Source: Patescibacteria group bacterium
GTDB lineage: Bacteria > Patescibacteriota > UBA1384 > XYA2-FULL-43-10 > 1-14-0-10-43-13
Reading direction: 5' to 3'
Length of the DNA stretch: 64,000 bases
Assembly: GCA_041666325.1 (NCBI GenBank)
Contig: JBAYHC010000001.1
Coordinates: 265,708-329,707, forward strand
The notes below the pieces were generated by a model. The model saw only the letters and a program-made list of their open reading frames with translations, did no database searches and was not told where the DNA came from. Made by a program: the position numbers and the translations under genes. Positions 6,915 through 33,758 of this stretch are shown piece after piece (the first letter of the stretch is position 1; the number at the start of each line of letters is the position of its first letter).

Positions 6915-7844
6915 TTACTCCTTGCCACCCTTTCCGTCTGCTCGAAAATCTTCATCAGACAACTTCGGGGTTCCCTTGTATACAGAGTCAAGCAAAGCAG
7001 GAAGTGCTCCAGCCCGTTCTGCCCTTTCGATTGCTTCGTGCGTGATAATCTCTCCGGTGTTCAAGATAATTTCGTCGCTTTCGCTATAGATCACTCTTGT
7101 TGTTGGTCTGCCGAGAGCGTCATTGATGCGCCGCCTACGAGCCTCATCGCTTGTCCTACTCCAGATACTGCCAGCGCTCTGCTTTATTTGATCCCAAGCA
7201 CTGGAAGCACTCTCCTTCATACTGCTCCCGGTTCCTCCCTCTCTGTACTCATGCGCATACTGCTTGGTTTTTTCCTTGGTTTTTTGAATCATCTCCCCCG
7301 TCTTCGATTTGGCCTGCTCAAACACACCCATTGCCCCACCAACTTGCTCCTCGATAATGCTGGCCGTGTCAGCCGGAACAAAAACTACATCTTGGCCAAC
7401 TTTGGTTAACTTTGGCGCAGGAACGAATGACCTACCTTTATAGATATCAGAGAATAGTCCTCCCATCACATCAAAGCCTTCCGATTTTCCACTCTTCTCA
7501 TCGAAAGCTATATCTGTAATAACCCCTAGCTCCTTGCCATCTTCGGTAACAACGCGCTTACCCCGCACATCATACTCTTTGCTGAGTAATGCCTCGATCT
7601 TTGGATGCTTGCCGGCAGCAACAACATCATTTTTGCTGGCAATTGTAACAGCGCTTGGTCCTATCGCCTCTATCTTCTCGAAGGGCACGATCTTAGCCTG
7701 AGCAAAAAGGCTGCCGCCTTCAGCAAGCAGGGCGATTATTCGGCAAGACTCAGGATCAAAAACAACATCGTCTATACGATAAATAATCTTTCCATCATCA
7801 CGAGTGATGATGGGTTTGTTAATTAATTCTTTGGATCGCATCAT
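6915..7844 (-). CDS. PRC-barrel domain protein (two PRC-barrel modules)
   Basis: Repeated pattern I..DG..lG.v.Dv.fD from PRC-barrel fold; AAGGAGGA RBS. Confidence 0.65.
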   Translation of the reverse strand: MMRSKELINKPIITRDDGKIIYRIDDVVFDPESCRIIALLAEGGSLFAQAKIVPFEKIEAIGPSAVTIASKNDVVAAGKHPKIEALLSKEYDVRGKRVVTEDGKELGVITDIAFDEKSGKSEGFDVMGGLFSDIYKGRSFVPAPKLTKVGQDVVFVPADTASIIEEQVGGAMGVFEQAKSKTGEMIQKTKEKTKQYAHEYREGGTGSSMKESASSAWDQIKQSAGSIWSRTSDEARRRRINDALGRPTTRVIYSESDEIILNTGEIITHEAIERAERAGALPALLDSVYKGTPKLSDEDFRADGKGGKE

Positions 7845-8139
7845 CTTTCCTCCTTTCTCTTGTATCTTACGTCTGCGAGATCAACTGTAAAGTCGTTCAA
7901 ATGGCCGGACTTTTCATTCGACTGATTTCCGGGCTATAATTGACATTGTGATGGTTTTTAGGTAATATGAAATCGGTAATGGGCGTGAATTTATGAAGGA
8001 TAAATTCCGATGGATGATAGCGAGTTGTTTTTTAAACTCCTTATTTTGGTGGAAAATCCTATGCTCTATATCTAGATCCGGTTATACGAAATATATTTAC
8101 GCTTAGACATCGGATATTGAGAAGGATTTTTTTAATTTC

Positions 8140-8215
8140 GGGGTGTGGCTCAGTTGGCTAGAGCACCGCGTTTGGGACGCGGGGGTCGTCGGTTCGAGTC
8201 CGACCACCCCGACCA
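8140..8215 (+). tRNA. tRNA-Pro (anticodon TGG)
   Basis: GGGGTGT acceptor, anticodon loop TTTGGGA, T arm GTCGG-TTCGAGT-CCGAC. Confidence 0.85.
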
Positions 8216-8615: not shown

Positions 8616-9098
8616 CTACGGCTTCTCAACTACAATACTGAGCTTTGTTTCCTCGCCAAACCAAGTTACACCCTCTTTAACCATTTGTAAGTTCAGGTCG
8701 TATTGCCCCGGTTTAGATGGGGACAGAAGATCAAATGTTATTTCCCAGCTTTTCCCGCTGCAAATTGGGCACTCCGGCACAACAAGTCGATTCTTGCCAC
8801 CAATGAAGCAAAAGTCTGATAACTCGCGACTAAGAAGGAACCGATCAAATACACCCAGAGCCACATAGTGTTCTTCCTTGCGCCAATCATCACTACCCAT
8901 GTTCTTGACGATAATCTTGCATCTAAATGGCTTCCCAGCTTCAACTATTGTCGGCACCGTCAGGCTGATTACGCTGGCCCTAAGGTTTCCCTCCGCTTCA
9001 ACCTTACGATAATGAAGCAAGTGAAACAGATCGGGGCCAGCATACGCTACAATCGGAGCAACAACAGCCAGAAGCAACACAAGAACAACTCTTCTCAT
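8616..9098 (-). CDS. Secreted hypothetical protein (signal peptide MRRVVLVLLLAVVAPIVAYA; possible Ig-like beta-sandwich)
   Basis: Start trimmed to ATG 9098 preceded by GGGAGGAGGA; N-terminal extension in ORF track lacks RBS. Confidence 0.55.
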   Translation of the reverse strand: MRRVVLVLLLAVVAPIVAYAGPDLFHLLHYRKVEAEGNLRASVISLTVPTIVEAGKPFRCKIIVKNMGSDDWRKEEHYVALGVFDRFLLSRELSDFCFIGGKNRLVVPECPICSGKSWEITFDLLSPSKPGQYDLNLQMVKEGVTWFGEETKLSIVVEKP

Positions 9099-9132
9099 CG
9101 GGCATTCCTCCTCCCATCTATGAGATTGATTG

Positions 9133-9160
9133 ATTATATCATCATTAGCTAATTTGACAA
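9133..9160. promoter_or_regulatory. Face-to-face divergent promoters sharing the -35 region: minus TTGTCA-16-TATAAT (for 8616..9098) and plus TTGACA-17-TAACAT (for 9334..)
   Basis: Hexamers read directly from sequence; spacing 16/17. Confidence 0.35.
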
Positions 9161-11474: not shown

Positions 11475-11860
11475 TTTTATTTATCGACACTTCAAACTCA
11501 GAGCTAACCACCCTAAAACTATTCGGCACAGCCTCGAATCTCATTTCGGAAACAACCTGGCAAAGTCGTTATAATCAGTCAGAGGAACTAGTGCAAGAGA
11601 TCGATCAATTTTTAGAAAAAAACAAGTTATCCGCAAAAGATCTCACATCTATTCGTGTTCATCCTGGACCAGGCTCATTCACCGGCGTCCGGATCGGTGT
11701 TACCACAGCGAACTTCTTAGCACTCGGACTAAACATACCGGTCGAAGGGCAGGCTAACGGCAACAGTACTGACAGTAACAAACAGGCAACAGACAACTTT
11801 GACGAGCCGGTTATTCCGATCTATGATCGACCGCCACACATCACTCAACCAAAAAAGTAG
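11471..11860 (+). CDS. tsaB: TsaB (YeaZ) N-terminal-domain protein, short form
   Basis: MILFIDTSN...IRVHPGPGSFTGVRIGVTTANFLALGLNIPV; ATGA overlap with tsaE. Confidence 0.75.
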   Translation: MILFIDTSNSELTTLKLFGTASNLISETTWQSRYNQSEELVQEIDQFLEKNKLSAKDLTSIRVHPGPGSFTGVRIGVTTANFLALGLNIPVEGQANGNSTDSNKQATDNFDEPVIPIYDRPPHITQPKK

Positions 11861-11868
11861 TATTCTTG

Positions 11869-11898
11869 TGGACGATTGTTTGTTGGTTCTGTTATAAT
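11869..11898 (+). promoter_or_regulatory. Putative sigma70 promoter TGGACG-18-TATAAT upstream of LCP gene
   Basis: Perfect TATAAT at 11893..11898. Confidence 0.4.
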
Positions 11899-11979
11899 AC
11901 TTTTGTTGTAATTATTAGTGACAATTCTTAACCAGCGTAATCTACGATAGAAAACGATCAAACAAAACAAAATCAAGAG

Positions 11980-13365
11980 ATGGTCTCCAGTAAGAAAAAA
12001 GCACAAAACACAAAGGCGGCAACACACTCTAAGCGCGGTCGAAAGATTGTTTTTTTTGTGCTCGCTCTTTTTTTTATGCTTGTCATTTCCTTTTTTGCTT
12101 ATATTTACGCCCAAGGCACAAAAATATTTGAAGATGGCTTTGGTGCAAAGACTTCAATTTTCAGAAATATACGGGATAGCATCAAAAACGATGTTCCGCT
12201 CAAGGGTGAAAAAGACGAAAGAATCAACATCCTTTTCATGGGAATAGGTGGTGCCGACCATCCAGGCGGACAGCTTACCGATTCGATCATGATTGCCAGC
12301 TTCAAGCCTGAAGACAATTCGATGGCGCTGCTCTCTGTTCCCCGCGACCTCTACGTTCCTGTAGCAGACCACAAAATAAAGACCAAAATCAACGAAGTTG
12401 TTGCTCTGGGCGAGAGAGAAAAGCGTGGCAGTGGGCTAGCGCTGATGAACGACACCATTGAAGATATTTTTGATATCCCTGTCCACTACTACGTTACCGT
12501 TGATTTTGAGGCTTTTGAGAAAATCGTGGATGAAGTTGGCGGTATCGACGTAGCTGTCGACAAGACAATATATGACCCTTACTACCCTGACAAAGCCATG
12601 AAGGGATACGAACCGTTCTACGTCAAAGCCGGACAGCACCATATGAATGGGGAGATCGCGCTAAAATATGCCCGCTCCAGGCAAACCTCGTCTGACTTTG
12701 ATCGTGCCGAACGTCAACAAAAAATTATTATGGCGATAAAGGACAAAATATTAAGTCTGGGATTTATTGCCAACCCTAAGAAATCTCTGGACATGGCTAC
12801 AATCTTGGGCGACCACGTACGCACAAACATTCAGCCAAATGAACTCAGACGATTTGCTGAGATAATGCAAAAAGTCGATAGCAGCAAAGTGGCCAACCAG
12901 GTACTAACCAATGGCAGCGATGGCCCGCTCGTCTCAGACTCCAGCTCAGGAACATACTACCTAATGCCCAGAAACGATGATTACAGTAGTCTGGCCGAGA
13001 TAGCAAAAAACATATTCGACGATAATAGTTCTTCCAGCGAAAAGGCCACACTTGAAGTATTAAATGGTTCCAGTGTCTCCGGGCAAGCCATCAAACTTGC
13101 AGATACCTTCAAGGATCTCGGATATAAGGTTGTTAATATTGCTAACGCCGAAGAGATATACAAGCAAACAGTCATTCATGACTATACAAAAGGGGCTAAA
13201 TCAAGCACACTAGAGTTCCTCAAAAAGAGGCTAGACGCACCAATCATCGATAAAACAGGCACAAGTGCAAGCGGTGCCGAAATAGTGATCATCATCGGAC
13301 AAGACTACCTAGACGCATCATCAACCGGAACAAGTGCAACAGGCAATTCAGCACAACGAAAATAG
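11980..13365 (+). CDS. LCP family (LytR-CpsA-Psr) cell envelope polymer transferase with C-terminal LytR_C domain
   Basis: N-terminal TM, ILFMGIGGADHPGGQLTDSIMIASF...LLSVPRDLYV, KYARSRQTSSDFDRAERQQKII motifs. Confidence 0.8.
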   Translation: MVSSKKKAQNTKAATHSKRGRKIVFFVLALFFMLVISFFAYIYAQGTKIFEDGFGAKTSIFRNIRDSIKNDVPLKGEKDERINILFMGIGGADHPGGQLTDSIMIASFKPEDNSMALLSVPRDLYVPVADHKIKTKINEVVALGEREKRGSGLALMNDTIEDIFDIPVHYYVTVDFEAFEKIVDEVGGIDVAVDKTIYDPYYPDKAMKGYEPFYVKAGQHHMNGEIALKYARSRQTSSDFDRAERQQKIIMAIKDKILSLGFIANPKKSLDMATILGDHVRTNIQPNELRRFAEIMQKVDSSKVANQVLTNGSDGPLVSDSSSGTYYLMPRNDDYSSLAEIAKNIFDDNSSSSEKATLEVLNGSSVSGQAIKLADTFKDLGYKVVNIANAEEIYKQTVIHDYTKGAKSSTLEFLKKRLDAPIIDKTGTSASGAEIVIIIGQDYLDASSTGTSATGNSAQRK

Positions 13366-13405
13366 ACCAACAAAGAACATCCAATCATAATATTCTGTTA
13401 CCAAA

Positions 13406-13969
13406 ATGGCCTTCTTGTATCATAAATTAACGCGCAGATTGCTACTCAGCTTGATTTTGGTATGGAGTGTGGCATCATTTCTGGTACTTAATCCATTGTG
13501 GGTTGCACGTATTAGCATTCTGGCACTCGGTGCGCTCGGACTTGCCTTGACGTGGGCAGAGATTGCGCCTCTTTTTCTGCTTATTTTTCTTGCGTTCTCC
13601 ACTTCGTACGCTTTCTATGGATTCTTCTTCCAATACAACCTTCCAACATGGCTGATCATGATCTCAATACTTGTCATCTTTGGCTATATTTTTACCTACA
13701 CAGAACAAAAAACCGGAATACTTGGCAACAAGAGACTGATTTATCTGATCTTGTTTTCCTTGGTCGTGCTCGAAGTGTTCCTCGTTTTGAGTTACTTTAT
13801 GATAAACCCCTTGAGTCAGAGCCTGATAATAGCTGCAACTGCCTATCTTTTTGCTGGATTCTGTTTCTCAATATTGGCAAAAAGAGATGACACCAGTCTA
13901 AAAACATATCTGTGGGTTGCAATCTCTGCCATCTCTGCGATACTCTTAACGTCATCGTGGAGCTATTAG
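13406..13969 (+). CDS. Integral membrane protein, ~6 TM, unknown function
   Basis: Hydrophobicity pattern only. Confidence 0.5.
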   Translation: MAFLYHKLTRRLLLSLILVWSVASFLVLNPLWVARISILALGALGLALTWAEIAPLFLLIFLAFSTSYAFYGFFFQYNLPTWLIMISILVIFGYIFTYTEQKTGILGNKRLIYLILFSLVVLEVFLVLSYFMINPLSQSLIIAATAYLFAGFCFSILAKRDDTSLKTYLWVAISAISAILLTSSWSY

Positions 13970-14113
13970 GCCAACTAGATGGATGTTATATGACCAGCAC
14001 CTAGCACGGAACAGACACCTCGAGCGATAAAGCCCGGCTTATAACCATATATTAACCAAGAAGATTTGACCTGAGTACAAGGAACAACTATTGGCTCGCA
14101 GTGAAGCCATGAC

Positions 14114-14143
14114 TTGCCCCAATCACATCAAATCCTCTATAAT
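14114..14143 (+). promoter_or_regulatory. Putative promoter TTGCCC-18-TATAAT for PpiC gene
   Basis: TATAAT 14138..14143, ATG at 14159 with AAAGGAAA RBS. Confidence 0.35.
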
Positions 14144-14158
14144 GGCAAAAAGGAAATT

Positions 14159-15148
14159 ATGAAGAAAATTAAACATCTCGGGAAAAAAGCCAGAAATATC
14201 GCGACTAAACTTGCTCAACGCTTTAGCGCCGTTGCGCCGAAACTGAAGGGGCTTCGTGACAAAAAAGTGTTCCGCGCTCTCATCGCCTCACTACCAGTCT
14301 TGGCCATTATAATTGCCCTGACACAAGTAGTTTTTGCTGTCATGATCTACGGCTTCAAGAAAGAAGACAAGGTTACCAGAGCAGTGGCAGCAGTCATCCC
14401 CTACCCTATAGCCATAGTCAATACACAAACCGTCTCGTACAAAGAGTATCTGAACGAGAAGGATTACATTCGCCATTTCTACAGCACCACCAAACAGGAA
14501 GACGTCAATTTATCAGAGATCGATAAACAAATTCTAGATCAGCTGGTCGAAAATAAGATTATTAATTCTCAAGCGGGACGATATGATGTAAAGGTCACCG
14601 AAGAGGACATCGACAACGCATTGAATTCAATAATTGATCAAAACGGCGGAAAACAAAATGTCGAGAAAGTTCTAAACGATCTCTATGGCATCGACCTGAA
14701 CACCTTCAAGCGACTGATTCGCCACCAGCTCCTACGCGACAAGATCAACAGCGAACTAATAACCCATGTCACCGCTCGCCATATCCTTGTTCGCGTTGAC
14801 AAGGATGCCCCGGAGGACAAGGTCAACGAAGCCAAGACCAAAATTGATGGTTATCTCAACGAAATTAAAAATGGCGCCGATTTTGCCGAAACAGCAAAGA
14901 AGAATTCTGAGGATATTGGAAGCAATGAGCAGGGAGGCGAGTTAGAACCATTCGCTCGAGGCGAGATGGTTGAAGAGTTCTCCAACGCTGCGTTCTCTAT
15001 GGCGGTGGGTGAAATTTCATCTCCCATTAGGACTGAGTTCGGTTGGCACATCATTAAAGTTGAGGCAAAAGAAGGCAAAATTGATAAAAAGTTCACTGAT
15101 TGGATCGACGAAGCCAAAAACAAATCAGTAATCAAAAAGCTTATTTAG
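14159..15148 (+). CDS. Membrane-anchored PpiC-type (parvulin) peptidyl-prolyl isomerase, PrsA/SurA-like
   Basis: HILVRV...GADFAETAKKNSEDIGS..GGELEPFARGEMVEEFSNAAFSMAVGEIS.PIRTEFGWHIIKVE rotamase domain; start moved to MKKIKHL. Confidence 0.8.
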   Translation: MKKIKHLGKKARNIATKLAQRFSAVAPKLKGLRDKKVFRALIASLPVLAIIIALTQVVFAVMIYGFKKEDKVTRAVAAVIPYPIAIVNTQTVSYKEYLNEKDYIRHFYSTTKQEDVNLSEIDKQILDQLVENKIINSQAGRYDVKVTEEDIDNALNSIIDQNGGKQNVEKVLNDLYGIDLNTFKRLIRHQLLRDKINSELITHVTARHILVRVDKDAPEDKVNEAKTKIDGYLNEIKNGADFAETAKKNSEDIGSNEQGGELEPFARGEMVEEFSNAAFSMAVGEISSPIRTEFGWHIIKVEAKEGKIDKKFTDWIDEAKNKSVIKKLI

Positions 15149-16256: not shown

Positions 16257-16277
16257 CACCGAAACATTGACCTTATA

Positions 16278-16306
16278 TGCCACCATTGACAATACGATGG
16301 TTTTGT
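16278..16306 (+). promoter_or_regulatory. Consensus-like promoter TTGACA-17-TATAGT
   Basis: Read directly; precedes GC-rich small ORF. Confidence 0.55.
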
Positions 16307-16358
16307 TTTATAGTAGCGACAATATCCCAGTCGTTTGCCCAAGAACGGAGGTGCGGTG

Positions 16359-16586
16359 ATGGGATGGATAGGAGCGCTCTGGACCATGATCTTCGGCCAG
16401 AACACGCCCGAACAGGCATTGCCTGCGGCAACGCGGCAGCCCACAACACAAAATCCTCGCGATGTCGGCTACACGGCCGACGGCGACACATTCAGTGTCC
16501 CTGAGATAAGCGCAGTCGAGCTGACAGAGCGACGAGCTGCGATTATCCTACTATCCGACGCAGAGATGTGCGAGGGTGTCGGATAG
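16359..16586 (+). CDS. Hypothetical 75-aa protein in GC-rich islet
   Basis: GGAGGTG RBS 5 nt before ATG 16359; local GC ~58% versus ~42% background. Confidence 0.4.
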   Translation: MGWIGALWTMIFGQNTPEQALPAATRQPTTQNPRDVGYTADGDTFSVPEISAVELTERRAAIILLSDAEMCEGVG

Positions 16587-16661
16587 GCCCCACACGGCCA
16601 GGACTGGACCTAGTCTACCAAGACGAAATCCACCTGGCCTGATTTTTATCCCGGATCAAGG

Positions 16662-16690
16662 TTGAATTTTATACTCAATAATGCTAGAAT
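16662..16690 (+). promoter_or_regulatory. Promoter TTGAAT-17-TAGAAT for tRNA-Asp
   Basis: Read directly. Confidence 0.5.
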
Positions 16691-16732
16691 TATTTGTGTT
16701 AATATTCCAGAAGTGAAAGACCAGTCAATTGC

Positions 16733-16809
16733 GGGGGCGTAGCTCAGTTGGTTAGAGCGCCTCCCTGTCACGGAGGAGGTCGCCGGTTCGAGCCCGGTCG
16801 CTCCCGCCA
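16733..16809 (+). tRNA. tRNA-Asp (anticodon GTC)
   Basis: GGGGGCG acceptor, anticodon stem CCTCC/GGAGG loop CTGTCAC, T arm GCCGG-TTCGAGC-CCGGT. Confidence 0.85.
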
Positions 16810-16832
16810 GTTGACTGATTTTCAGCAGAGAG

Positions 16833-16859
16833 AATGAAGCTTCCAAGCTTCATTTTTTG
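16833..16859 (+). terminator. Rho-independent terminator AATGAAG-cttccaag-CTTCATT + TTTTTG
   Basis: Read directly after tRNA-Asp. Confidence 0.6.
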
Positions 16860-16912
16860 TTTGCAAAGAAAATAAATCGCTGGTTGAACTAATTACAATT
16901 TTAGGCGCTATC

Positions 16913-16941
16913 TTGACTTTTCATCTGTTGTGTGCTATAAT
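16913..16941 (+). promoter_or_regulatory. Consensus promoter TTGACT-17-TATAAT
   Basis: Perfect -10; shows the annotated ORF start at 16913 is upstream of the TSS. Confidence 0.55.
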
Positions 16942-16996
16942 CATGGATGTCTTGTTTGGTGGGAGCGTTCAATCTGCCGACAGAGGGGATATCGCA

Positions 16997-17470
16997 ATGA
17001 GAAACATCGCCAGAACCACTGCCGTCGTACTGATCTTCGCCGCCGGCTTCATCGCCGGCACCTATCACGGTTTCTGCTACGACGACTACACCACGCTCAG
17101 CATACTTGCCGGATCACCGGACAAGATCGAGCATGAGTGGTGGACAAAGGTCCCGCAGGCCTGGTACACGATCGCCACCCTTGCTCTGCTTGCCTTTGCT
17201 GGGCTGATCTACGCTCTGACGCGCAAGCCGAAGGATCAGGAACATACCTGCACGTGCACCGGCGGTGGATGCGGCAAGTCGGCACAGGTTACTTTCTCGA
17301 TGAAAGAAGCCGTCCAGCCAGAGTTCAGGGACGAGCATATCACGAGCATCACGTACGAAATGCTCAACGAATCGACCCGGGCAGCTATCAGGGCGGCCGG
17401 GCACGGAAGCATCGTCGCTCATGGGCACGGGCTGGAAACGCGGAAAACGATCTGCCCGCCGAGCACATAG
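16997..17470 (+). CDS. Hypothetical two-TM membrane protein with Cys/His-rich motifs (HTCTCTGGGCGKS, HGSIVAHGHG), GC-rich
   Basis: Start set at MRNIARTT downstream of promoter; GAGGGG RBS; several overlapping antisense ORFs are GC-driven artefacts. Confidence 0.45.
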   Translation: MRNIARTTAVVLIFAAGFIAGTYHGFCYDDYTTLSILAGSPDKIEHEWWTKVPQAWYTIATLALLAFAGLIYALTRKPKDQEHTCTCTGGGCGKSAQVTFSMKEAVQPEFRDEHITSITYEMLNESTRAAIRAAGHGSIVAHGHGLETRKTICPPST

Positions 17471-17499
17471 GACAGAAACAACCCTTGAGCACCAGCTCA

Positions 17500-17531
17500 C
17501 CGGCGTCCCCCGTGGATGCCGGCTTTTTTTA
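17500..17531 (+). terminator. Terminator CCGGC-loop-GCCGG + 9 T
   Basis: Read directly. Confidence 0.55.
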
Positions 17532-17566
17532 TTTTTTATCAATACTTTACTCTACTAACCCAAGTA

Positions 17567-17740
17567 GTTCTTCGCGAACTTTGCCGTTTGAGATTAATGC
17601 ACTATTTATCTCCGTGTCATAGCGCTGATCCTTGCCAAAGAAATCCATCGCTCTTCCTCCTGCCTCTTCGATAATTACCTTTAGGGCAGCGACGTCATAG
17701 AAAAAGCTTACCCAAACAGAACTTTTGTTGACAGCTCTTT
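17567..17740 (-). pseudogene. C-terminal remnant of an inositol-monophosphatase (IMPase/SuhB) family gene, 5-prime truncated
   Basis: Minus-strand frame reads ...YDVAALKVIIEEAGGRAMDFFGKDQRYDTEINSALISNGKVREELLGLVE*, matching the IMPase C-terminal WDxAAG..ivEEAGG motif; upstream in-frame stop, no N-terminal part. Confidence 0.5.
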
Positions 17741-17798
17741 TTTTATTTGCTACGCTCGAGAGTCACCGATTTGGTTTATTATTGTCGAAGGAGCAACA

Positions 17799-18086
17799 AT
17801 GAATCCAGCATACGGCGGCAGTATGACTGTCACCGAGAGTGCTGGAAACTTTGTTTCCGGAGTTCAATTTAACAATAAGATCGTATCTCTTGGTGATATC
17901 ATCATTTCGGCAGGGAACTCAACGGCGGTTCCCCCGAAAGGCTCCCGGGCAGTAGTCTTTGGGATCGAGCGCGAAAAAAGCGCGCCAGCCAGCTACATCA
18001 TCGTAGCTCGCTGCCGCGACGGAGCGGTTTACCGCTTCGCACTCGACCAAATTGACTTCTCGTCCAGGGCCTGCCACCTTCTTTAG
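17799..18086 (+). CDS. Hypothetical 95-aa protein
   Basis: GAAGGAGCAACA RBS; followed by strong terminator. Confidence 0.5.
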   Translation: MNPAYGGSMTVTESAGNFVSGVQFNNKIVSLGDIIISAGNSTAVPPKGSRAVVFGIEREKSAPASYIIVARCRDGAVYRFALDQIDFSSRACHLL

Positions 18087-18104
18087 CCGTTTTCCCGTAC
18101 CACA

Positions 18105-18131
18105 GGGGCCTGCACAGGCCCCCTTTTTTTG
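18105..18131 (+). terminator. Terminator GGGGCCTG-ca-CAGGCCCC + TTTTTTT
   Basis: Read directly. Confidence 0.6.
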
Positions 18132-18205: not shown

Positions 18206-18544
18206 TTATGCAGCCAGTTCGACGATACTCGTCTGGTCCCTGGCAGAAATAACAGCGCCCATCAGGCGGCCATCGTCATCTTCAATAGACTGAATTTCTT
18301 GCGGCGACTCAATATAGTGGAAAAGATTGTCCGGATTATCCCCTTCCTCCCCGGTAACGATCTTGACACCCTGAACTATATCCCCGGAACAGTCACCTTC
18401 AAAAGCTACCAATGGCTGTTTGCTTAGCAGCTTCTCGCCTTCCTGGGGAGTTTGCACAGTAAGCTTAACTCGCTTCCCCTCATTTTCTTTGGCAAAGCGC
18501 ATCAGAAAATCGACCCATCCACTTTGCGGGATATCCTTACGCAT
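18206..18544 (-). CDS. Hypothetical 112-aa acidic protein
   Basis: ORF only; GAGGAGGA upstream but spacing short. Confidence 0.4.
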   Translation of the reverse strand: MRKDIPQSGWVDFLMRFAKENEGKRVKLTVQTPQEGEKLLSKQPLVAFEGDCSGDIVQGVKIVTGEEGDNPDNLFHYIESPQEIQSIEDDDGRLMGAVISARDQTSIVELAA

Positions 18545-18573
18545 CACTCCTCCTCATTGGACTGTTTATGGTA

Positions 18574-18744
18574 CTATTTTTTCTTTGCACTGTATTCCTT
18601 GACCTCAACGCCACCCGTATAGTCGTTCTCCTCAACCTCGACAACATGATGATCCGGATTATTGTCCATGTGATTCATTGCTTCCGCTGGTGATGTGCTC
18701 ATGAAGGAACAAGTTTCCTCAGCGCATGCATACTTTTTTGGCAT
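18574..18744 (-). CDS. Hypothetical 57-aa protein (Cys-containing N-terminus, acidic C-terminus)
   Basis: Start set to MPKKYACAEETCS with AGGGAGAG RBS. Confidence 0.4.
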   Translation of the reverse strand: MPKKYACAEETCSFMSTSPAEAMNHMDNNPDHHVVEVEENDYTGGVEVKEYSAKKK

Positions 18745-18861
18745 ATAACCCACTCTCCCTGCTACACAGATTGATTTATGCAACAGAATTGAATATTAAT
18801 ACTTGCGCCACAAAACATCTTAATTATATCAAGCAAAGGGAAAAAATAGTTTTGAAAGCTA

Positions 18862-23771: not shown

Positions 23772-26700
23772 TTATTGTAATTTTGTTCCAAAGGCACCAA
23801 AGATCCAGCCCAGCGAGCGCTGTAGCGAATTGAGAATAATATCGATAACTGATTTCTGGACTTTCCCTGTGATGGTGGTCGTATCCTCTGAAGCACCAAG
23901 GTTGCCGGCATTGTCATGGGAAACTGCCCGCAGATGATAAATCTTGCTGGGATCAAGTTCGGAGACAATTACCACGTGGCTGGTTGAGTAAGCCATATCC
24001 TCTTTGGTCTTGTTGGGGTAATCCTTGCCGGAAATGCCGGGACCATATTCAATCTGGCTGGTCGCCGGTTCATCAGTTTCCCAGGTAACAATAATCTGGG
24101 CTTTTTGAGCATCACTAATACCCGAAGCCTTGACCTCGGTTGTCATATTGTTAATCTTGGGCGGTCGGGAATCAAGGGGTGTTTTAAAGGTGTTTACATC
24201 AGAGGTAGCCTGATTACCAAACTGATCGCGGCTGATCGCCTGCAACTGGTATGTTTGTTGATCTACGAGACCCCTAATCACGATTTCGTGATCAGTCACA
24301 AATTGTGAAGTTGCTGACTCCTTTTTTTCTGCTTTGTCAGAAACGTAAGTCACCGCAGATGAGGCCGGAACGTTTGTTTTCCAGCCGACTTTGATTGAGG
24401 TTAGGGCTTCCTCGTTGGCCGTTTCAAAGCGCAAGTCAGAGATGCGAGGTTGAGCAATGGTCGTGAAGGCATGGCCTGGCGAGACTACTTCGTTATTATC
24501 AGCGTCTCTGATCGTAACCTTGACCTGGTAGGTTGTGCCATCTTGCAGATCAGACATCCGAACAACATGCTTGGTCGTCCCACCACCTGAGTCATCTTTG
24601 ATCGTCTGCCCATAATCCGTGGTCGCGCCATATTCAATGGTCGATGAAGATGCTTTGTTTGTATCAAAACTAAGAATCGTGGAATTTGTTGAAGTATCAC
24701 TGAATATAACATTGGCCAAAGCGGGAGCAGCAGTAGTTGTAAAAGTGTAATCAGCCGAGTAGCCAAGAGACTGGCTGTAGTCACGCAAGTCACCGGGATC
24801 CAAACTCTGGGTCTTGAAGTGGTAGAGTGTGCCGGGGGCCAAGCCGGTAATTTTGACCGAATGATCAGTTTTTTCTTCACGGGCGCCCAAACTTAGACCA
24901 TAACTTGTCGTCGTGCCATACTCGACAAAGGCATCTGATTTGCGATCAGTGGTCCAAGTAATCTCGGCACTGGTTGCCCCAGCGACTGCTTCGACGCTAT
25001 CAGCATCAATCGTCGGCGGTGCGGTGTATTTGCCGGTTGGCTGTTTACTAACAATGCCGCCGGCTCCCGGATCTGCCGATACGGCTCCGGCTGAATCCTT
25101 GGCATATATTTTATAATAATAGGTTGTCTCTGAGGATAAATCGGAATCAATATAGCCGGTTGAAGCAACGCTGCCAACCGAAGAAAAGCTCGTTCCATCG
25201 GTTGAACGATGGACAATATACTGAGAAACATCTCCGCCCGATGATGGTGCGGACCAGGTCAATGTTAAGCGGTATTCGCTCGTTGCCCGGCTTGAGCTGT
25301 CAGTCAAGAGAATACTTGTGGGAATCCCCGGGGCAGTTGTGCTGACATAAAAATCCACACTACCATACAAATTGTAGTTAATCTGCTCCGTTTCATCCTC
25401 GGCCACCACGTAGAACGTGTTCTTCCCCTGCTGGGTAGCATAAGCATCGGTCGCGAGCGAGGTAGCTGTCGTCACAGTTGTATTGGTAGCCGTTGGCAGA
25501 GCGTTAATTGAATAACGATAACGCTTGATCGAACCACTATAGGTCTGAGGAATGGCCCACTGAAAGGAAACATCGTTGGCTAGAAGCGGAGCGCCCTCAC
25601 TGCTTGCCGGCAGGGCACTTACTGCCGTTGGCGCCGAGGCGCCCTCACCAGCGTAGTAGTACGAAACTGATGCCTCAGATGATGTATTGCCGGCATTATC
25701 AACCACTCGCAAGTAAAATGTGTTGACGCCGCTTTGGTATGCGGCTCCAGAAAGTGCGACCTGGGTTTCGGTTGTTGTGCTTGACCAATTTGAATAGCTG
25801 CCAGATGAGGCACCAGTCTTGTATTGATAGCCGGCAATACTCGAGCCAGTCGTTGGCGCTCCTGGGTCGGTGGCTGCCGAACTGCCGCCATTGGGCCAGA
25901 GAAAAGTAAAAGTCGTGCTGGTAGTAAAGCCGGAGGGCGAGGCTGACACGATTGATGGAGGCGTCGGTGCCGCTGCATCATATTTGTAAGTGAAAGCAGC
26001 ATAAGCACTCTCGGGATAATTTTCTGCCCTGTCTTTAGCCAGAACCCGCAGATAGTAAGTCGTGCCGTTAGCAATAGCCGCGGTGTCAGTGCCAATAATT
26101 ATTGCGGTACCGCTTTGGAAATGAATGCCGGTTCCGCCCACTTCGGTGGCGATGCCTCGGGTTGTCCTTGGGTCAGCACTGTCGGAAGTACCGAAGTAAA
26201 CCCAATACCCTTCGATTCCACTACCAGCATCTGAGCCGTCGCCCCAAGTAAACTTAGGTGCTGCGTAATTGTACCAATTTCCGCTTGTAAGCTCTGTTGA
26301 GCCGCCATCGGCGTTAATTGCAGTTAAAGATGCCGGATTCGTCGGATTGGTAGTATCTGCCGTATATTGAACCTCAACACTACTCAAAACAACTTGCTGA
26401 CTACCACTACCAGTCAAAATCGCCTGCCACAGCAGTCCAACGTTAGATACGGAAAAAGTGGCAATATTAGCGTGAATATCCGCCTCACTATTAGCATTAG
26501 CCAGCGAGTTTGATGCTACCCAAGCTGAACTATTCCAATATTTCCAGCTTGTTCCGTTGTCATCAGATAATCGATAAGTAATCGTGCCACCATTGAGTGT
26601 TTCTTCGGCCACAAAACCGCTCCAGGCACCGACGTCTGAATCATCAACCGCACTCGTTGGCTGAATGGTTTGAGCCGAGTTAGTATAAGGGCTGGTTGTA

Positions 26701-29700
26701 AATGAAGTCCTTGCAGTATTGCTTATCCGGACTTCATCGATCATTCCAGCGAGTTTGCCAAGAGTTAATCCTGCCCCGGTGGTGCCCTGAGCGCCACCAA
26801 TATAGAGTGAATATGCGCTGTCTGCTAAAGTAACCGAACCAAAAGCAGTTGCAGAATCCTCTAATCCATCCACATAGATTTTGGCCGTCGCGCCATCGTA
26901 GGTGGCAGCGATGTGGTACCAACCAGCATCCCAGCTAGACCTAGATGATGCAGCAATCTTGTTGTCACCATACGACCAGATCTCGCCATCACCGGCCCCA
27001 GTGCCAAGACCGGCAATAAGTTTGCCATTGTAAACGGTCATTGATTGAACATCTTCATAATTACCGGTCACCCAACTGACGCCAACAGTATCTCCCCCAA
27101 CTTTTGTCCAGCTTGAACCATCGTATTTCCAGATTTCAGCGTCGCCAGCAGAGCTGCCCAAACCAGCATAGAGCTCGCCATTATAGCTAACTAGAGAACT
27201 CACTTTTTCATAGTCGGTATTCCAGCTATTGTTTAAACCATCGCCCCCTATCTTGGCCCAGGCAGAACCATTCCAAGACCAAACCTCTGCTTCACCGGCA
27301 CTACCCCAGCCCAATCCGGCATACAATACCCCTTGATTGATCGCCAAAGAAGCCACTCCTTCATGAGGGCCATCGGACCAGGTATCATTAAGTCCGTCTC
27401 CACCAAGCTTAGTCCAAGTAGAACCATTCCACTTCCAGACTTCCGGATCAGTAGTATATGCACTGCCTAACCCCACTAAAACATTAGAGCCAGAGACTAA
27501 AATAGTATCGATGATTTCATAGGTAGCATCCGCCCAGCTAGAATTGACGGTGTCGCCGCCAATTTTGCTCCAAGTCGAGCCGTCCCATTTCCAAAGCTCA
27601 GCCTCCCCAGTCGAATAACCAAGACCGGCATACAAATTCGTTCCGTCAGAGGCAAGGGATCGGGCTCGTTCATAGGTAGTATCCGCCCAGCTAGAATTGA
27701 CGGTGTCGCCGCCAATTTTGCTCCAAGTCGAGCCGTTGTAGCGCCAGACCTCGGCATCACCAGCACCATCGCCCAACCCAGCATAGAGATAAGTTGCGTC
27801 CGAGGTCATCGAGAAAACAGTCTCATAGGTGGAATCCGCCCAGCTAGAATTGACGGTGTCGCCGCCAATTTTGCTCCAAGTCGAGCCGCTCCACTTCCAA
27901 ACCTCCGCTTCACCGCTACTGGTACCCAAACCAGCGTATAGATTACCCCCAAAATAATTCATCGAACTGACAGAATCATAACCGGAATTCCAACCAGAAT
28001 TGGTGTTATCACCACCAATCTTGGTCCAAGCAGATCCACTCCAAGACCAAACTTCTCCGTCGCCACTACCAGTACCCAAACCGGCATATAGATTAGTACC
28101 GTCACCCACCATCGAAATAACATATTCATATCCAGTACTCCAACCCGAGTTCAAGCCATCGCCACCAATCTTGGCCCAAGAAGTGCCATTGTAGCGCCAA
28201 ACCTCGGCATCTCCCGATGTCTGGCCCAAGCCTGCATAGAGATAAGTAGCATCCGCGTAGAGTGAGTAGACCGATTCATAGGTAGCTCCCGCCCACGATG
28301 AATTGGTGCCATTTCCCCCAATCGGAGTCCAGGCACCGGTCGAACCGTCATATTCATAAACAACCGCATCGCCAGGCGATGTTCCATGAAGACCAAAATA
28401 CTGTTTATTATTATAATTAGCCGAAGACATAACATCGCTCTCATAACCAGGCCCCCAGCTTTTATAGGCGCTTCGTCCACCAATCATCTCCCATGCTGAG
28501 CCATTGTAGCGCCAAACCTCCGCATCCGTGTACGACGTTCCTCCTGAACCATACAGAGCGACGTATAAAAATTGATTATCAGTAACAGCATTAACAACAT
28601 AAAGCGTAGTGTTCCACGATGAATTTGCTCCATCGCCGCCAACTTTGGTCCAAGCCGAGCCGTTCCAGGACCAGACTTCTCCATCGCCGCTGCTTATGCC
28701 ACCAACTCCGGCATATAGGCTTCCCTGGAAATTAGCCAGGGTTTTAACGTTCCCGTATGTGCCTGCATTCCACGATGAATTTGCTCCATCGCCGCCAACT
28801 TTGGTCCAAGCCGAGCCGTTCCAGGACCAGACTTCGGCGTCTTGACCCGCAGTCCCAGATGTTCCTACATATAGAGCACCGCCCATTTCCTGGAGAGAGC
28901 TAATAGCATCAATAGTCTCGTCCCACCCTCCATTAATACCGCCGCCGCCAATCATTGACCAAGACGTACCGTCGTATTGCCAGACACTTGCTTGCTTGCT
29001 AGCAGATCCATTGCCCCAAATACCAGAGCCGGCATAGAGTTTACCATTCCCCACCGTAATAGCATCTATCTCTACCAGCTGCGGCGCGAACCAGGAATTT
29101 GTATCACGACCTCCAATGGCTGCCCAGCTAGACCCGTTCCACTTCCACACCGTACCCTCATTGACATCGCCACCCAACCCAGCATAGAGATCAGTCCCGA
29201 TCACGCTCATGCTATAAACTCTATTTTCTATCCCTGTCCATCCGGAATTAGTATTATCGCCGCCAATCTTAGTCCAGGCGGAACCGCTCCAAGACCAAAC
29301 CTCAGCATCACCGCTCGAGTCACCAAGGCCAACAACCACAGAGCTACCTAGGGCAGTAATTGCATAAACACTTTCGTAATTGGTAGTCCATCCGGAATTG
29401 ATACTGTCGCCACCGATCTTAGTCCATGTTGTGCCATCATAAATCCAGACTTCAGCATCATTACCACTAGTTGAAAGACCGGCATAAAGAGTAGTACCTA
29501 TATATGCCAGCGAGGTTATTTGTTCATAAGTAGCATCGGCCCAGGAGCTATTAGCAGCGTCACCGCCGATTTTTGTCCAGGTGGTACCGTCATAGCCCCA
29601 GACTTCAGCATCGCCAGCTGAAGCGCCAAGACCCGCGTAAAGCGTGGTGGACCCATTGGTAGCAAGCGACCAAACACTTTCATAACTCGTGGCCCAGGAA

Positions 29701-30893
29701 GAGCCTACCCCATCACCGCCGATTTTTGTCCAGGAACTACCATCATAACTCCAAACTTCGGCATCTCCAGCATAGGCAGAATATATTGAAGCACAAAGAG
29801 TATTGGCATAAACAACGAGATCCCTTACTAAATAATAGCTGTTAGAGGCCGAGCTCCAACTACTGTTTTGACCATCACCACCGATTTTGGTCCAGGATGT
29901 GCCATCATACTTCCACACCTCACCGTCATAAGAGCTGCTCCCCAAACCTGAATAAAGCTCATTATTATATACTGCGAGGCCATAAACCCCTTCATAATCA
30001 GCCCCATTCCAGGAGCTGCGGACACCATCTCCGCCAATTTTTGTCCAGGATGACCCACTCCCGCTATATTTCCAGACTTCACCTGCACCAGCAGCACCGA
30101 CCAATCCAGCATAGAGCTCGTTGTTCCAGACGACTGTTGAGCTTACATAGTTTGTGCCGTGATCAGACCAATCACCATTCCCCACCCCCTCAGCAAGCTT
30201 ACTCCAGCTTTTGGCCGTATTGGGGGTTAAATCAAATTTTAACTTACCATCTGTATCGTCAAAATATAGCTTATAGTTGCCCTTATCAAAGACGCTAGCA
30301 GGAACACTTTGGGTACTGTCAAAGGCACTATTAAACTTAACATAGGCTTCGAGTGTCATAGCACCAGAGAGAGACGTGGTGCTTGAGTCAGCTACCGTAG
30401 CAACACTGCCCAAGCCACTGCCAGTAAATGATGTTCCGTTACCAGCCTTTCCTGAAGCAAAGCTGGCGCCGCTGCCGAGAGTAGCAGTGTTACTATTACC
30501 AGATGAATCAGTTGCGCTTGTCCCCTCCGTCTCGTCAAAGTGCCAAAGCGCGTTAGTGTTGTCATCGTCGCTTAGCTGCTGCAATTTATGGCGGGCTGAA
30601 TTGGACACAATCTCAAGATTGGAGCTGTTATAGGTGTAGTCAGACGAATTGCCAAATGTCCAAGTATTGGCAGCTGCATAAGCGTTTGTACTGCCACCAA
30701 AAAACGACTGGAACAAAATAGAAGTTATCAAGAGGACATAAATTGCCAGTGCCCCAAAATGAACCCTTTGGTGGTGTGGATTATGATGCCAATTATGATA
30801 GAGGGTTGATTTAGATAGCAAAAAATCATGCGCTTTGCTTAAGTGTCTGATCCTAGTCTTAGAACAGTTTGTATGCAAACACTTCCCCAACAT
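23772..30893 (-). CDS. Giant (2373 aa) cell-surface protein. Order: N-terminal signal anchor; LamG/concanavalin-like domain; ~30 tandem ~50-aa Kelch/tectonin-like beta-propeller repeats (consensus AEVW.YDGS.W.KIGGDG.NSSW...YE.V.S....LYAGLG.S.GD); second LamG_3-like domain; several Fn3/PKD-like domains
   Basis: Single uninterrupted ORF; repeats visible at protein and DNA level; start site uncertain (GGAGGG immediately abuts ATG 30893). Confidence 0.8.
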   Translation of the reverse strand: MLGKCLHTNCSKTRIRHLSKAHDFLLSKSTLYHNWHHNPHHQRVHFGALAIYVLLITSILFQSFFGGSTNAYAAANTWTFGNSSDYTYNSSNLEIVSNSARHKLQQLSDDDNTNALWHFDETEGTSATDSSGNSNTATLGSGASFASGKAGNGTSFTGSGLGSVATVADSSTTSLSGAMTLEAYVKFNSAFDSTQSVPASVFDKGNYKLYFDDTDGKLKFDLTPNTAKSWSKLAEGVGNGDWSDHGTNYVSSTVVWNNELYAGLVGAAGAGEVWKYSGSGSSWTKIGGDGVRSSWNGADYEGVYGLAVYNNELYSGLGSSSYDGEVWKYDGTSWTKIGGDGQNSSWSSASNSYYLVRDLVVYANTLCASIYSAYAGDAEVWSYDGSSWTKIGGDGVGSSWATSYESVWSLATNGSTTLYAGLGASAGDAEVWGYDGTTWTKIGGDAANSSWADATYEQITSLAYIGTTLYAGLSTSGNDAEVWIYDGTTWTKIGGDSINSGWTTNYESVYAITALGSSVVVGLGDSSGDAEVWSWSGSAWTKIGGDNTNSGWTGIENRVYSMSVIGTDLYAGLGGDVNEGTVWKWNGSSWAAIGGRDTNSWFAPQLVEIDAITVGNGKLYAGSGIWGNGSASKQASVWQYDGTSWSMIGGGGINGGWDETIDAISSLQEMGGALYVGTSGTAGQDAEVWSWNGSAWTKVGGDGANSSWNAGTYGNVKTLANFQGSLYAGVGGISSGDGEVWSWNGSAWTKVGGDGANSSWNTTLYVVNAVTDNQFLYVALYGSGGTSYTDAEVWRYNGSAWEMIGGRSAYKSWGPGYESDVMSSANYNNKQYFGLHGTSPGDAVVYEYDGSTGAWTPIGGNGTNSSWAGATYESVYSLYADATYLYAGLGQTSGDAEVWRYNGTSWAKIGGDGLNSGWSTGYEYVISMVGDGTNLYAGLGTGSGDGEVWSWSGSAWTKIGGDNTNSGWNSGYDSVSSMNYFGGNLYAGLGTSSGEAEVWKWSGSTWSKIGGDTVNSSWADSTYETVFSMTSDATYLYAGLGDGAGDAEVWRYNGSTWSKIGGDTVNSSWADTTYERARSLASDGTNLYAGLGYSTGEAELWKWDGSTWSKIGGDTVNSSWADATYEIIDTILVSGSNVLVGLGSAYTTDPEVWKWNGSTWTKLGGDGLNDTWSDGPHEGVASLAINQGVLYAGLGWGSAGEAEVWSWNGSAWAKIGGDGLNNSWNTDYEKVSSLVSYNGELYAGLGSSAGDAEIWKYDGSSWTKVGGDTVGVSWVTGNYEDVQSMTVYNGKLIAGLGTGAGDGEIWSYGDNKIAASSRSSWDAGWYHIAATYDGATAKIYVDGLEDSATAFGSVTLADSAYSLYIGGAQGTTGAGLTLGKLAGMIDEVRISNTARTSFTTSPYTNSAQTIQPTSAVDDSDVGAWSGFVAEETLNGGTITYRLSDDNGTSWKYWNSSAWVASNSLANANSEADIHANIATFSVSNVGLLWQAILTGSGSQQVVLSSVEVQYTADTTNPTNPASLTAINADGGSTELTSGNWYNYAAPKFTWGDGSDAGSGIEGYWVYFGTSDSADPRTTRGIATEVGGTGIHFQSGTAIIIGTDTAAIANGTTYYLRVLAKDRAENYPESAYAAFTYKYDAAAPTPPSIVSASPSGFTTSTTFTFLWPNGGSSAATDPGAPTTGSSIAGYQYKTGASSGSYSNWSSTTTETQVALSGAAYQSGVNTFYLRVVDNAGNTSSEASVSYYYAGEGASAPTAVSALPASSEGAPLLANDVSFQWAIPQTYSGSIKRYRYSINALPTATNTTVTTATSLATDAYATQQGKNTFYVVAEDETEQINYNLYGSVDFYVSTTAPGIPTSILLTDSSSRATSEYRLTLTWSAPSSGGDVSQYIVHRSTDGTSFSSVGSVASTGYIDSDLSSETTYYYKIYAKDSAGAVSADPGAGGIVSKQPTGKYTAPPTIDADSVEAVAGATSAEITWTTDRKSDAFVEYGTTTSYGLSLGAREEKTDHSVKITGLAPGTLYHFKTQSLDPGDLRDYSQSLGYSADYTFTTTAAPALANVIFSDTSTNSTILSFDTNKASSSTIEYGATTDYGQTIKDDSGGGTTKHVVRMSDLQDGTTYQVKVTIRDADNNEVVSPGHAFTTIAQPRISDLRFETANEEALTSIKVGWKTNVPASSAVTYVSDKAEKKESATSQFVTDHEIVIRGLVDQQTYQLQAISRDQFGNQATSDVNTFKTPLDSRPPKINNMTTEVKASGISDAQKAQIIVTWETDEPATSQIEYGPGISGKDYPNKTKEDMAYSTSHVVIVSELDPSKIYHLRAVSHDNAGNLGASEDTTTITGKVQKSVIDIILNSLQRSLGWIFGAFGTKLQ
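27531..27910. repeat. Three intragenic copies of a 56-nt identical DNA segment (atccgcccagctagaattgacggtgtcgccgccaattttgctccaagtcgagccg) at ~145-160 bp spacing; a second pair (ccacgatgaatttgctccatcgccgccaactttggtccaagccgagccgttccaggaccagacttc) at 28615 and 28775
   Basis: Exact string identity seen in sequence; reflects recent homogenisation between propeller blades. Confidence 0.7.
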
Positions 30894-33684: not shown

Positions 33685-33758
33685 TCCGAGATCGTCTAAT
33701 GGCAGGACAGCGGCCTTTGAAGCCGTGAATCTTGGTTCGAATCCAAGTCTCGGAACCA
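33685..33758 (+). tRNA. tRNA-Gln (anticodon TTG)
   Basis: U1-A72 acceptor TCCGAGA/TCTCGGA, anticodon loop CTTTGAA, T arm CTTGG-TTCGAAT-CCAAG. Confidence 0.8.

Follow-up and report, generated by a model that had tools for sequence, protein, structure and literature searches.

A probable horizontal-transfer hot spot with three moron-like orphan units beside tRNA-Asp in a Patescibacteria genome

Integron arrays bring runs of unrelated small genes, often orphans, together at one site, in the form of cassettes that are normally promoterless and end in attC sites beside an intI gene. Genomic islands linked to tRNA genes are marked by their tRNA neighbor, by atypical composition, and by the disruption of a neighboring gene. 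The morons of HK97/HK022-type phages are single genes with their own promoter and factor-independent terminator, which differ in GC content from their neighbors, are absent from the same position in related genomes, and in many cases code for small membrane proteins or for small proteins without known function (PMC3594210, whose definition we follow). Finally, hot spots of horizontal transfer without mobility genes are variable segments lying by core genes and tRNAs, where the cargo differs from relative to relative without an integrase or transposase; turnover by recombination in the flanks has been proposed for them, especially in transformable bacteria (Oliveira et al. 2017, PMC5635113). 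Here we describe a locus that resembles each of these systems in part. It lies in a 64,000-nt stretch, henceforth the window, of the genome of a Patescibacteria group bacterium (GenBank assembly GCA_041666325.1, contig JBAYHC010000001.1, positions 265,708 to 329,707 of the forward strand), where three short, GC-rich open reading frames (ORF1, ORF2, and ORF3) are spread over an islet at 16.3-18.1 kb, together with a native tRNA-Asp gene and the relic of an IMPase-family gene. With a probability of about 0.6, we interpret the locus as a horizontal-transfer hot spot beside the tRNA-Asp that has accreted three self-contained accessory transcription units. All coordinates are counted within the window unless a locus from another genome (L082 and so on) is named. 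The features of the islet are as follows.

16286-16314, plus strand: promoter-like site of unit 1, TTGACA-17-TATAGT, an 11/12 match to the consensus
16359-16586, plus strand: ORF1, a GC-rich orphan of 75 aa with GGAGGT 6 nt before its ATG (P0010; NCBI WCT32_01475)
16596-16649, plus strand: terminator-like composite hairpin of ORF1 (GGCCAGG...CCTGGCC), with the hairpin at 16596-16639 and a T-run, from the minimum-free-energy fold (inverted repeat I2)
16733-16809, plus strand: native tRNA-Asp (GTC), called by ARAGORN and by Rfam (68 bits)
16913-16941, plus strand: promoter-like site of unit 2, TTGACT-17-TATAAT with an extended -10 TG, an 11/12 match
16997-17470, plus strand: ORF2, a GC-rich orphan of 157 aa (NCBI WCT32_01485)
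17500-17532, plus strand: intrinsic terminator of unit 2, hairpin 17500-17522 with a 9-bp stem (7 GC pairs), then T7
17547-17714, minus strand: C-terminal relic of an IMPase-family gene, 54 codons and a stop, native-like GC of 0.43
17728-17756, plus strand: weak promoter-like site of unit 3, TTGACA-17-TACGCT, a 9/12 match with a poor -10, read from the sequence
17799-18086, plus strand: ORF3, an orphan of 95 aa, predicted all-beta, with AAGGAG 5 nt upstream (NCBI WCT32_01490)
18105-18131, plus strand: intrinsic terminator of unit 3, hairpin 18105-18122 with a 7-bp stem (6 GC pairs), then T7

All three ORFs are strong outliers in composition and codon use. The window as a whole has a GC content of 0.451, against 0.588 in ORF1, 0.591 in ORF2, and 0.535 in ORF3, and the respective GC contents at third codon positions (GC3) are 0.63, 0.75 (0.747), and 0.58, against a mean of 0.462 +/- 0.055 in the native ORFs (46 ORFs of at least 150 aa). 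The three ORF patches are also the top three GC peaks of the 64 kb (0.608, 0.604, and 0.58 in 250-nt windows; mean 0.451, standard deviation 0.043). A preliminary description of this DNA, made from its letters, had spoken of a GC-rich islet (about 55-60%) in a background of about 42%. The three patches, at 0.54-0.59, agree with this, and neither GC content nor codon usage proved uniform on quantitative analysis, but the background is 45% rather than 42% and the islet taken whole reaches only 0.52, because its GC-rich DNA forms three separate patches with AT-rich, native-like DNA between them. Judging by their GC richness and non-native codon usage, the units would derive from donors as yet unsampled, a pool with about 55-60% GC.

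Each unit would be complete in itself, with promoter and Shine-Dalgarno site ahead of a small ORF and an intrinsic terminator behind it. Sites with at most one mismatch to TTGACA-N17-TATAAT number four in the window against 0.38 expected, and two of the four are those of units 1 and 2, whereas the site of unit 3 fails the -10 criterion of the promoter scan; the idea that each ORF has a near-perfect promoter of its own therefore holds for the first two units (11/12) and has to be toned down to a weak site (9/12) for the third. Behind all three ORFs there is a hairpin with a T-run, as had been recognized beforehand, that of ORF1 being unlisted by a simple terminator scan on account of its long loop. 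Shine-Dalgarno sites of the GGAGG type precede all three starts by 5-7 nt. As coding sequence predicts, GC content at the second codon position is the lowest of the three positions in every ORF, and at the first position purine (0.65-0.67) and G (0.33-0.40) are higher in the annotated frame than in any of the other five (ORF1: purine 0.67, G 0.40; ORF3: purine 0.65). ORF2 is secure as a genuine gene in view of its GC3 of 0.75, its two long helices, one real relative, and a probability of about 0.002 of being a chance ORF (hand calculation). ORF1 and ORF3 are without relatives, so their coding status is judged from intrinsic signals only.

Evidence that this place is a site of turnover comes from five family-level relatives (L082, L084, L085, L088, and L089), gathered via homologues of the DUF7544 protein with 33-43% identity. 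As far as the contigs reach, all five keep the order LTD-TsaE-TsaD-LytR-187aa-SurA-DUF7544, and in all of them a tRNA-Asp, with 80-94% identity to that of the window, adjoins or lies near the DUF7544 gene; the tRNA-Asp of the window has signals of its own, namely a promoter-like site at 16662-16690 and a hairpin terminator at 16833-16861. Beyond this conserved block, the gene content around and after tRNA-Asp differs in every relative. ORF1-3 are missing from all five, three of the five (L085, L088, and L089) carry GC-rich single-gene units of their own, equipped with promoters and terminators, and the cargo genes of the window and the relatives are mutually unrelated. The spacer between DUF7544 and tRNA-Asp, which is 477 nt long in the window and holds ORF1, measures 54 nt in L084 and 134 nt in L085. 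The slot of ORF1 is taken in L089 (Ga0156406_128) by another GC-rich unit of 228 aa (GC 0.54 versus 0.41 for the genome) and in L088 (SDBT01000195.1) by a GIY-YIG gene, the latter genome having in addition an array of five GC-richer single genes after its tRNA-Asp (0.49-0.55 versus a native 0.35-0.38), several of them with TTGACA-type promoters. In L085 (ENA ERZ27297438), a solitary 139-aa orphan at 14190-14880, 3.2 kb after tRNA-Asp, shares the design of the window units: a TTGACA promoter and a Shine-Dalgarno site lead into it, a hairpin terminator follows it, and its GC of 0.59 (GC3 0.74) stands in a genome of 0.35. Across these genomes, the GC content of the cargo (about 0.52-0.59) does not track that of the host (0.35-0.45). 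With different content in each relative, and different GC-rich units in three of them, the islet of the window can be seen as a single case of a variable spot at tRNA-Asp that recurs across the lineage. The comparison covers the left flank, conserved in the five relatives, at family level; the right flank (DUF5335 and enolase) was not found in them. In part this supports the earlier reading of foreign DNA near a tRNA: GC-rich ORFs lie on both sides of a tRNA called by two methods, the flanks of the tRNA are a synteny breakpoint at which cargo varies, and none of the five relatives has the same small genes without an IMPase fragment.

The remnant of a metabolic gene between ORF2 and ORF3 adds a record of what one such arrival may have cost. 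On the minus strand, homology to the IMPase family is limited to 17550-17714 (Pfam PF00459, E 2.3e-5, positions 218-262 of the 271 of the model; NCBIfam HisN, E 2.9e-5), and the segment aligns to residues 195-246 of the 256 of the Thermotoga maritima IMPase 2p3n in the PDB. Its PF00459 score of 24.5 bits is below the curated cut-off of 27, as expected for a fragment of 54 codons, and the alignment to 2p3n supports the identity. Homology begins at about residue 195, and no ORF with both IMPase motifs, including the metal-binding DPIDGT-type motif of the N-terminal catalytic part, was found in the window or the fetched loci, which makes this a pseudogene relic rather than a functional member of the family. 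The minus-strand remnant of the preliminary description is thus real, but it is shorter (17550-17714 rather than 17567-17740), with about three-quarters of the gene gone instead of two-thirds. The frame is still open over 71 codons, for which the chance is about 0.014 at its composition (hand calculation), suggesting a fairly recent truncation; NCBI leaves the relic unannotated, with no locus tag between 01485 and 01490. From the relic, an intact IMPase-family gene would once have stood here. By tblastn and motif scan, however, neither the fetched loci nor the window contain an intact one, and since no relative has an IMPase at the site, insertion into a resident copy cannot be confirmed. A 255-aa ORF at 38707-39474 with a weak IMPase match is an HD-domain protein instead. 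The geometry, with about 490 bp now occupying the place of about 585 bp of missing IMPase coding sequence, speaks for replacement and not for simple insertion.

The relic stands between two perfect copies of a 12-nt direct repeat, CTTTTTTTATTT, at 17523-17534 and 17737-17748; the first forms the T-tract of the terminator behind ORF2, and the second falls within the promoter spacer of ORF3. It could be a recombination microhomology, and we discarded it as an island boundary, as it is T-rich and has roughly even odds of arising by chance.

The three proteins are orphans to an unusual degree. ORF1-3 have no family in Pfam, PHROGs, PADLOC, or NCBIfam, and in a word-seeded search of 5.8 billion proteins they matched only themselves. 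No matches were obtained with them by tblastn against phage and plasmid records, by sequence searches of the PDB, or in scans of IMG/VR with each ORF and with an alignment of ORF2 to its relative P0013, nor did a metagenome scan with this alignment give any. P0013, a protein of 90 aa, is the sole relative of ORF2, found with an E of 1.9e-6 by an exhaustive phmmer search of 1.84 billion representative proteins in which the query was ORF1, ORF2, and ORF3 fused; its identity to ORF2 is 35-37% across a helical hairpin, non-membrane motifs included. In the same search ORF1 and ORF3 had no matches beyond themselves. With all searches taken together, virtually no relatives of ORF1-3 exist among about 15 billion known proteins, and the orphan status first claimed for the three is borne out by family and homologue searches alike. 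Two tandem-repeat proteins, P0011 and P0012, were rejected as relatives, their scores being accumulation artefacts of the fused query.

Single-sequence AlphaFold2 models, of low confidence, place helices at 2-37 and 41-75 of ORF2 (predicted local distance difference test, pLDDT, 62) and seven strands in ORF3 (pLDDT 49). ORF2 is laid out as two long N-terminal helices and a Cys/His-rich tail, and its product is most likely a membrane protein with two helices and a tail that possibly binds metal; the ORF3 product is most likely a small beta-rich protein. Foldseek searches of the PDB with the ORF3 model gave just generic small beta-barrels (E of at least 0.1), which were disregarded. All three products are most likely small accessory proteins. 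By analogy, ORF2 might, at a guess, be a small membrane-anchored accessory factor, and a function like that of moron-encoded small membrane proteins, as exclusion or envelope factors, is a tentative and unlikely suggestion.

The locus of P0013 (L087; JGI 3300057050, 1-1428) shows a similar contrast in composition: a cassette of 61-66% GC with a TTGACT-17-TATACT promoter stands beside a gene of 32% GC, which encodes a 23S_rRNA_IVP/Avd-like four-helix bundle. The cassette is flanked, at about 333-375 and 878-921, by direct repeats of about 45 nt, identified by eye, which contain the hairpin CCGACTGG-ACAA-CC(G/A)GTCGG, and a further GC-rich ORF begins at 982.

Several observations concern repeats and folds in the relatives. 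In L088, a 32-nt repeat directly after tRNA-Asp (11517-11548) recurs 1.1 kb farther on (12635-12666) and so brackets the first cassette. Within the array (11517-14781), an 81-nt repeat is present at 13276-13356 and 14630-14710, with 91% identity, and an 82-nt repeat at 14059-14140 and 14700-14781, while the motif AGTTCTAAC recurs at four cassette boundaries. Rfam RF00008, the type III hammerhead ribozyme, matches over its full length in both 81-nt copies (13281-13339 and 14635-14693), with 33 and 31 bits and E values of 2e-4 and 9e-4, which is under the gathering score. The boundary motifs of L088 were not found in the window, its hammerhead module was not found in viral contigs, and a literature search returned no paper linking hammerhead ribozymes with the Candidate Phyla Radiation (CPR). 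An att-like partial copy of the 3' half of tRNA-Asp lies at 13513-13528 of the same locus. L082 (JGI 3300035099, 8960-9150) has another partial copy of the 3' half, 1.9 kb downstream of its tRNA-Asp and past a GH39-like gene: 21 nt identical to the tRNA (9080-9100) are followed by a 39-nt insert and then by GCTCCCGCCA (9140-9149), of which a second copy occurs at about 9008. The L082 fragments, which neither ARAGORN nor Rfam calls, look like att-site remnants of integration events. The predicted fold of the 228-aa unit of L089 (3470-4300) is multibranched, with a z of -6.6 to -7.1, and the opposite strand of the unit carries an ORF of 247 aa; instead of a gene, the unit may represent a large structured RNA.

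Set against the known systems, the window units agree with morons in having their own promoter and terminator, in composition (GC 0.54-0.59 versus 0.45, GC3 0.58-0.75 versus 0.46), and in their absence at this position from relatives. They differ in that they lie amid housekeeping genes (SurA-like, tRNA, and enolase) and have no PHROG or viral-contig matches, and the expression of morons from a repressed prophage is irrelevant to them. Judged by its left flank, the locus would have in common with the hot spots without mobility genes a variable segment by core genes and a tRNA, cargo that differs per relative, and the lack of an integrase or transposase; unlike those, it is followed here across family-level relatives rather than strains, and its cargo in the window consists of single GC-rich orphan units. 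The tRNA neighbor, the atypical composition, the disrupted neighboring gene, and the att-like tRNA-Asp fragments of relatives recall tRNA-linked islands, yet the window has neither an integrase nor a repeat of the tRNA 3' end, is GC-rich on both sides of the tRNA, and has an islet of less than 2 kb in total. As for integron arrays, the run of unrelated small genes at one site and the repeated boundary modules of L088 are reminiscent of them, whereas the window units have a promoter and terminator each, and there is no intI; no repeated or imperfect-palindrome boundary element common to the window units was found.

On the preferred reading of a transfer hot spot, the units would have come separately or been shuffled after arrival, probably through integrase-free recombination, illegitimate or homology-facilitated, following DNA uptake, and the arrival of unit 3 would have replaced the N-terminal 200 or so codons of the resident IMPase-family gene, leaving the 54-codon relic. 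Several points weigh against this. DNA gained by horizontal transfer tends to be richer in AT than the recipient genome, and this DNA is richer in GC. Neither a donor nor a homologue identifying the source was found, so the case for transfer is built on composition and on synteny at family-level distance, no database relative having a DUF7544 protein closer than 43% identity and no GTDB species representative being a relative with that protein. The window shows no target duplications or boundary repeats. ORF1, with 75 codons in 59%-GC DNA, has a chance of about 0.08 per frame of being open by accident (hand estimate). Finally, the coding region of ORF3 folds with a z of -5.6, alike on both strands (200 shuffles), and that of ORF1 with a z of -3.4 to -4.2, an unusual stability that a plain protein-gene reading does not predict.

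These folds are the starting point of the most serious alternative, namely that unit 3, unit 1, or both are structured noncoding RNA genes or structured DNA elements with incidental ORFs, leaving ORF2 as the only protein-coding unit. RNAs often stand out as GC-rich patches in AT-poorer genomes, and in a scan of the 64 kb ORF3 is the most stable of 213 windows (z -7.0; mean -0.57, standard deviation 1.4), exceeding even those that contain tRNAs; its region has several perfect hairpins, among them a 16-nt inverted repeat at 17981-18018. The unit in the ORF1 slot of L089 is also very stably folded. Without homologues, conservation cannot demonstrate that ORF1 and ORF3 are coding, and the low AlphaFold2 confidence for ORF3 fits an RNA as well. 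On the other hand, strong Shine-Dalgarno sites precede the ATGs, the ORFs extend from these sites to just short of the terminators, and the annotated frames are the best of six in first-position purine and G. Rfam recognizes only tRNA, both at the gathering threshold and at E of up to 10; the equal stability of the two strands means that there is no strand-specific RNA signal, and other GC-rich cargo, such as ORF2 (z -1.6) and the units of L085 and L088, is not unusually structured. We therefore consider an RNA identity of these units unlikely. It shades into a bolder and decidedly speculative possibility, to which we give slightly less credit still: that the family has dedicated tRNA-linked capture sites, at tRNA-Asp and perhaps at tRNA-Gln/Gly/Thr, where an undescribed mechanism gathers GC-rich cassettes, each a single gene or an RNA, out of a mobile pool not yet sampled. 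This idea draws on the hammerhead-bearing modules between the cassettes of L088 and on cassettes that fold far more stably than any native segment (z -5.6 for ORF3, -7 in L089); some cassettes could then represent structured RNAs, or their DNA copies, and not ordinary protein genes.

The preliminary description had viewed the islet as one insertion of foreign DNA near a tRNA, and in its classical form this would be the decayed remnant of an integrase-mediated genomic island or prophage at tRNA-Asp from which the integrase and att sites have been deleted. The islet does adjoin the tRNA, and the att-like copies of its 3' half in L082 and L088, with the 32-nt repeat bracketing the first cassette of L088, make it seem that site-specific integration at tRNA-Asp occurs in this lineage. 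In the window, however, no integrase or recombinase is present among the genes called within +/-10 kb (Pfam table), and the last 14 or 20 nt of tRNA-Asp have no second copy near the islet at up to three mismatches; the direct repeats sought at the island ends are absent, and there are no PHROGs, IMG/VR, or phage-record matches. The GC-rich DNA, moreover, lies on either side of the tRNA in three units interleaved with DNA of native composition (the tRNA with its signals, and the relic), quite unlike a single downstream insertion. Foreign composition, tRNA linkage, and the IMPase relic thus survive from that early picture, a single insertion into a known resident IMPase is not supported, and we regard a decayed island as improbable. 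We think equally little of the chances that ORF1-3 are native lineage-specific or de novo genes whose GC content reflects selection on mRNA structure or amino acid content and not transfer. The failure to find any donor among about 15 billion proteins would agree with this, as would the host-type promoters and Shine-Dalgarno sites, and a giant surface protein elsewhere in the window (23772-30893) illustrates that amino acid content can raise local GC. Yet the excess in ORF2 resides at third codon positions (0.75 versus 0.46), which is not an amino acid effect; the ORFs are missing from all five left-flank relatives, which hold different GC-rich genes at the same spot; and a GC-rich gene of the widespread HATPase_c_2 family, described below, implies that some of the GC-rich cargo did not arise de novo. 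As the source is a metagenome-assembled genome (MAG) and the patches are short, a chimera of assembly or binning with reads of a higher-GC organism also has to be considered. It is scarcely credible: an identical 20.5 kb is present in a JGI contig, the proteins (WCT32_01470-01490 in NCBI) recur in two MAG records of NCBI and on contigs of 110, 460, and 687 kb, and each of the three patches is in exact register with one set of promoter, Shine-Dalgarno site, ORF, and terminator, a match that no chimera would give. The same arrangement on several contigs and assemblies is not a one-off product of assembly.

The three units have SurA-like, DUF7544, tRNA-Asp, DUF5335, enolase, and iPGM genes as neighbors. 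On its right, 18206-18783 of the minus strand encodes a DUF5335-like protein of 113 aa (E 3.5e-5, under the Pfam threshold) and a Cys/His-containing protein of 69 aa, for neither of which a counterpart was detected in any fetched relative, so variability may extend to the right flank of the hot spot. The enolase of the window is at most 75% identical to those of Berkelbacteria and Paceibacteria MAGs, which share just the enolase-iPGM pair. A fourth compositional outlier, a 177-aa ORF at 33024-33557 on the minus strand (GC 0.558, GC3 0.63), is the HATPase_c_2 gene mentioned above (Pfam, E 8e-7; an RsbA-like anti-sigma factor by NCBIfam) and lies 128 nt from a cluster of tRNA-Gln (33685-33758), tRNA-Gly (33910), and tRNA-Thr (33985). 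L089 has a GC-rich orphan (0.58) at 7820-8143, which precedes the equivalent tRNA-Gly/Thr pair by about 1.1 kb, and the two together may mark a second tRNA-linked hot spot. The plateau of about 50% GC at 24-30 kb has a different cause: it corresponds to the giant ORF of 2373 aa on the minus strand (23772-30893), with Gly/Ser/Trp-rich, beta-propeller-like repeats ("AEVWxYxGxxWxKIGGDG") and fn3-like C-terminal domains, and follows from the amino acid content of that protein and not from GC3, which is 0.46.

Horizontal transfer is common and well documented in Patescibacteria, and in these tiny, streamlined CPR genomes the gain of genes is only starting to be mapped (PMC12455944). The locus described here follows it at the resolution of single genes: a conserved tRNA-Asp site has gathered unrelated GC-rich orphan units in several members of one family, and it preserves a fresh case of a metabolic gene, of the IMPase family, being overwritten. 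On present evidence it agrees with what is known of transfer hot spots, and it departs from an ordinary one in that its genes have essentially no known relatives. Should the units be expressed, a candidate role for them, suggested by analogy, would be as strain-specific factors of an episymbiont, acting in its envelope or in host interaction. More generally, cargo that is richer in GC than its host, the stable fold of ORF3, and the hammerhead-bearing repeats of L088 are leads to what may be a new mechanism of cassette mobilization.

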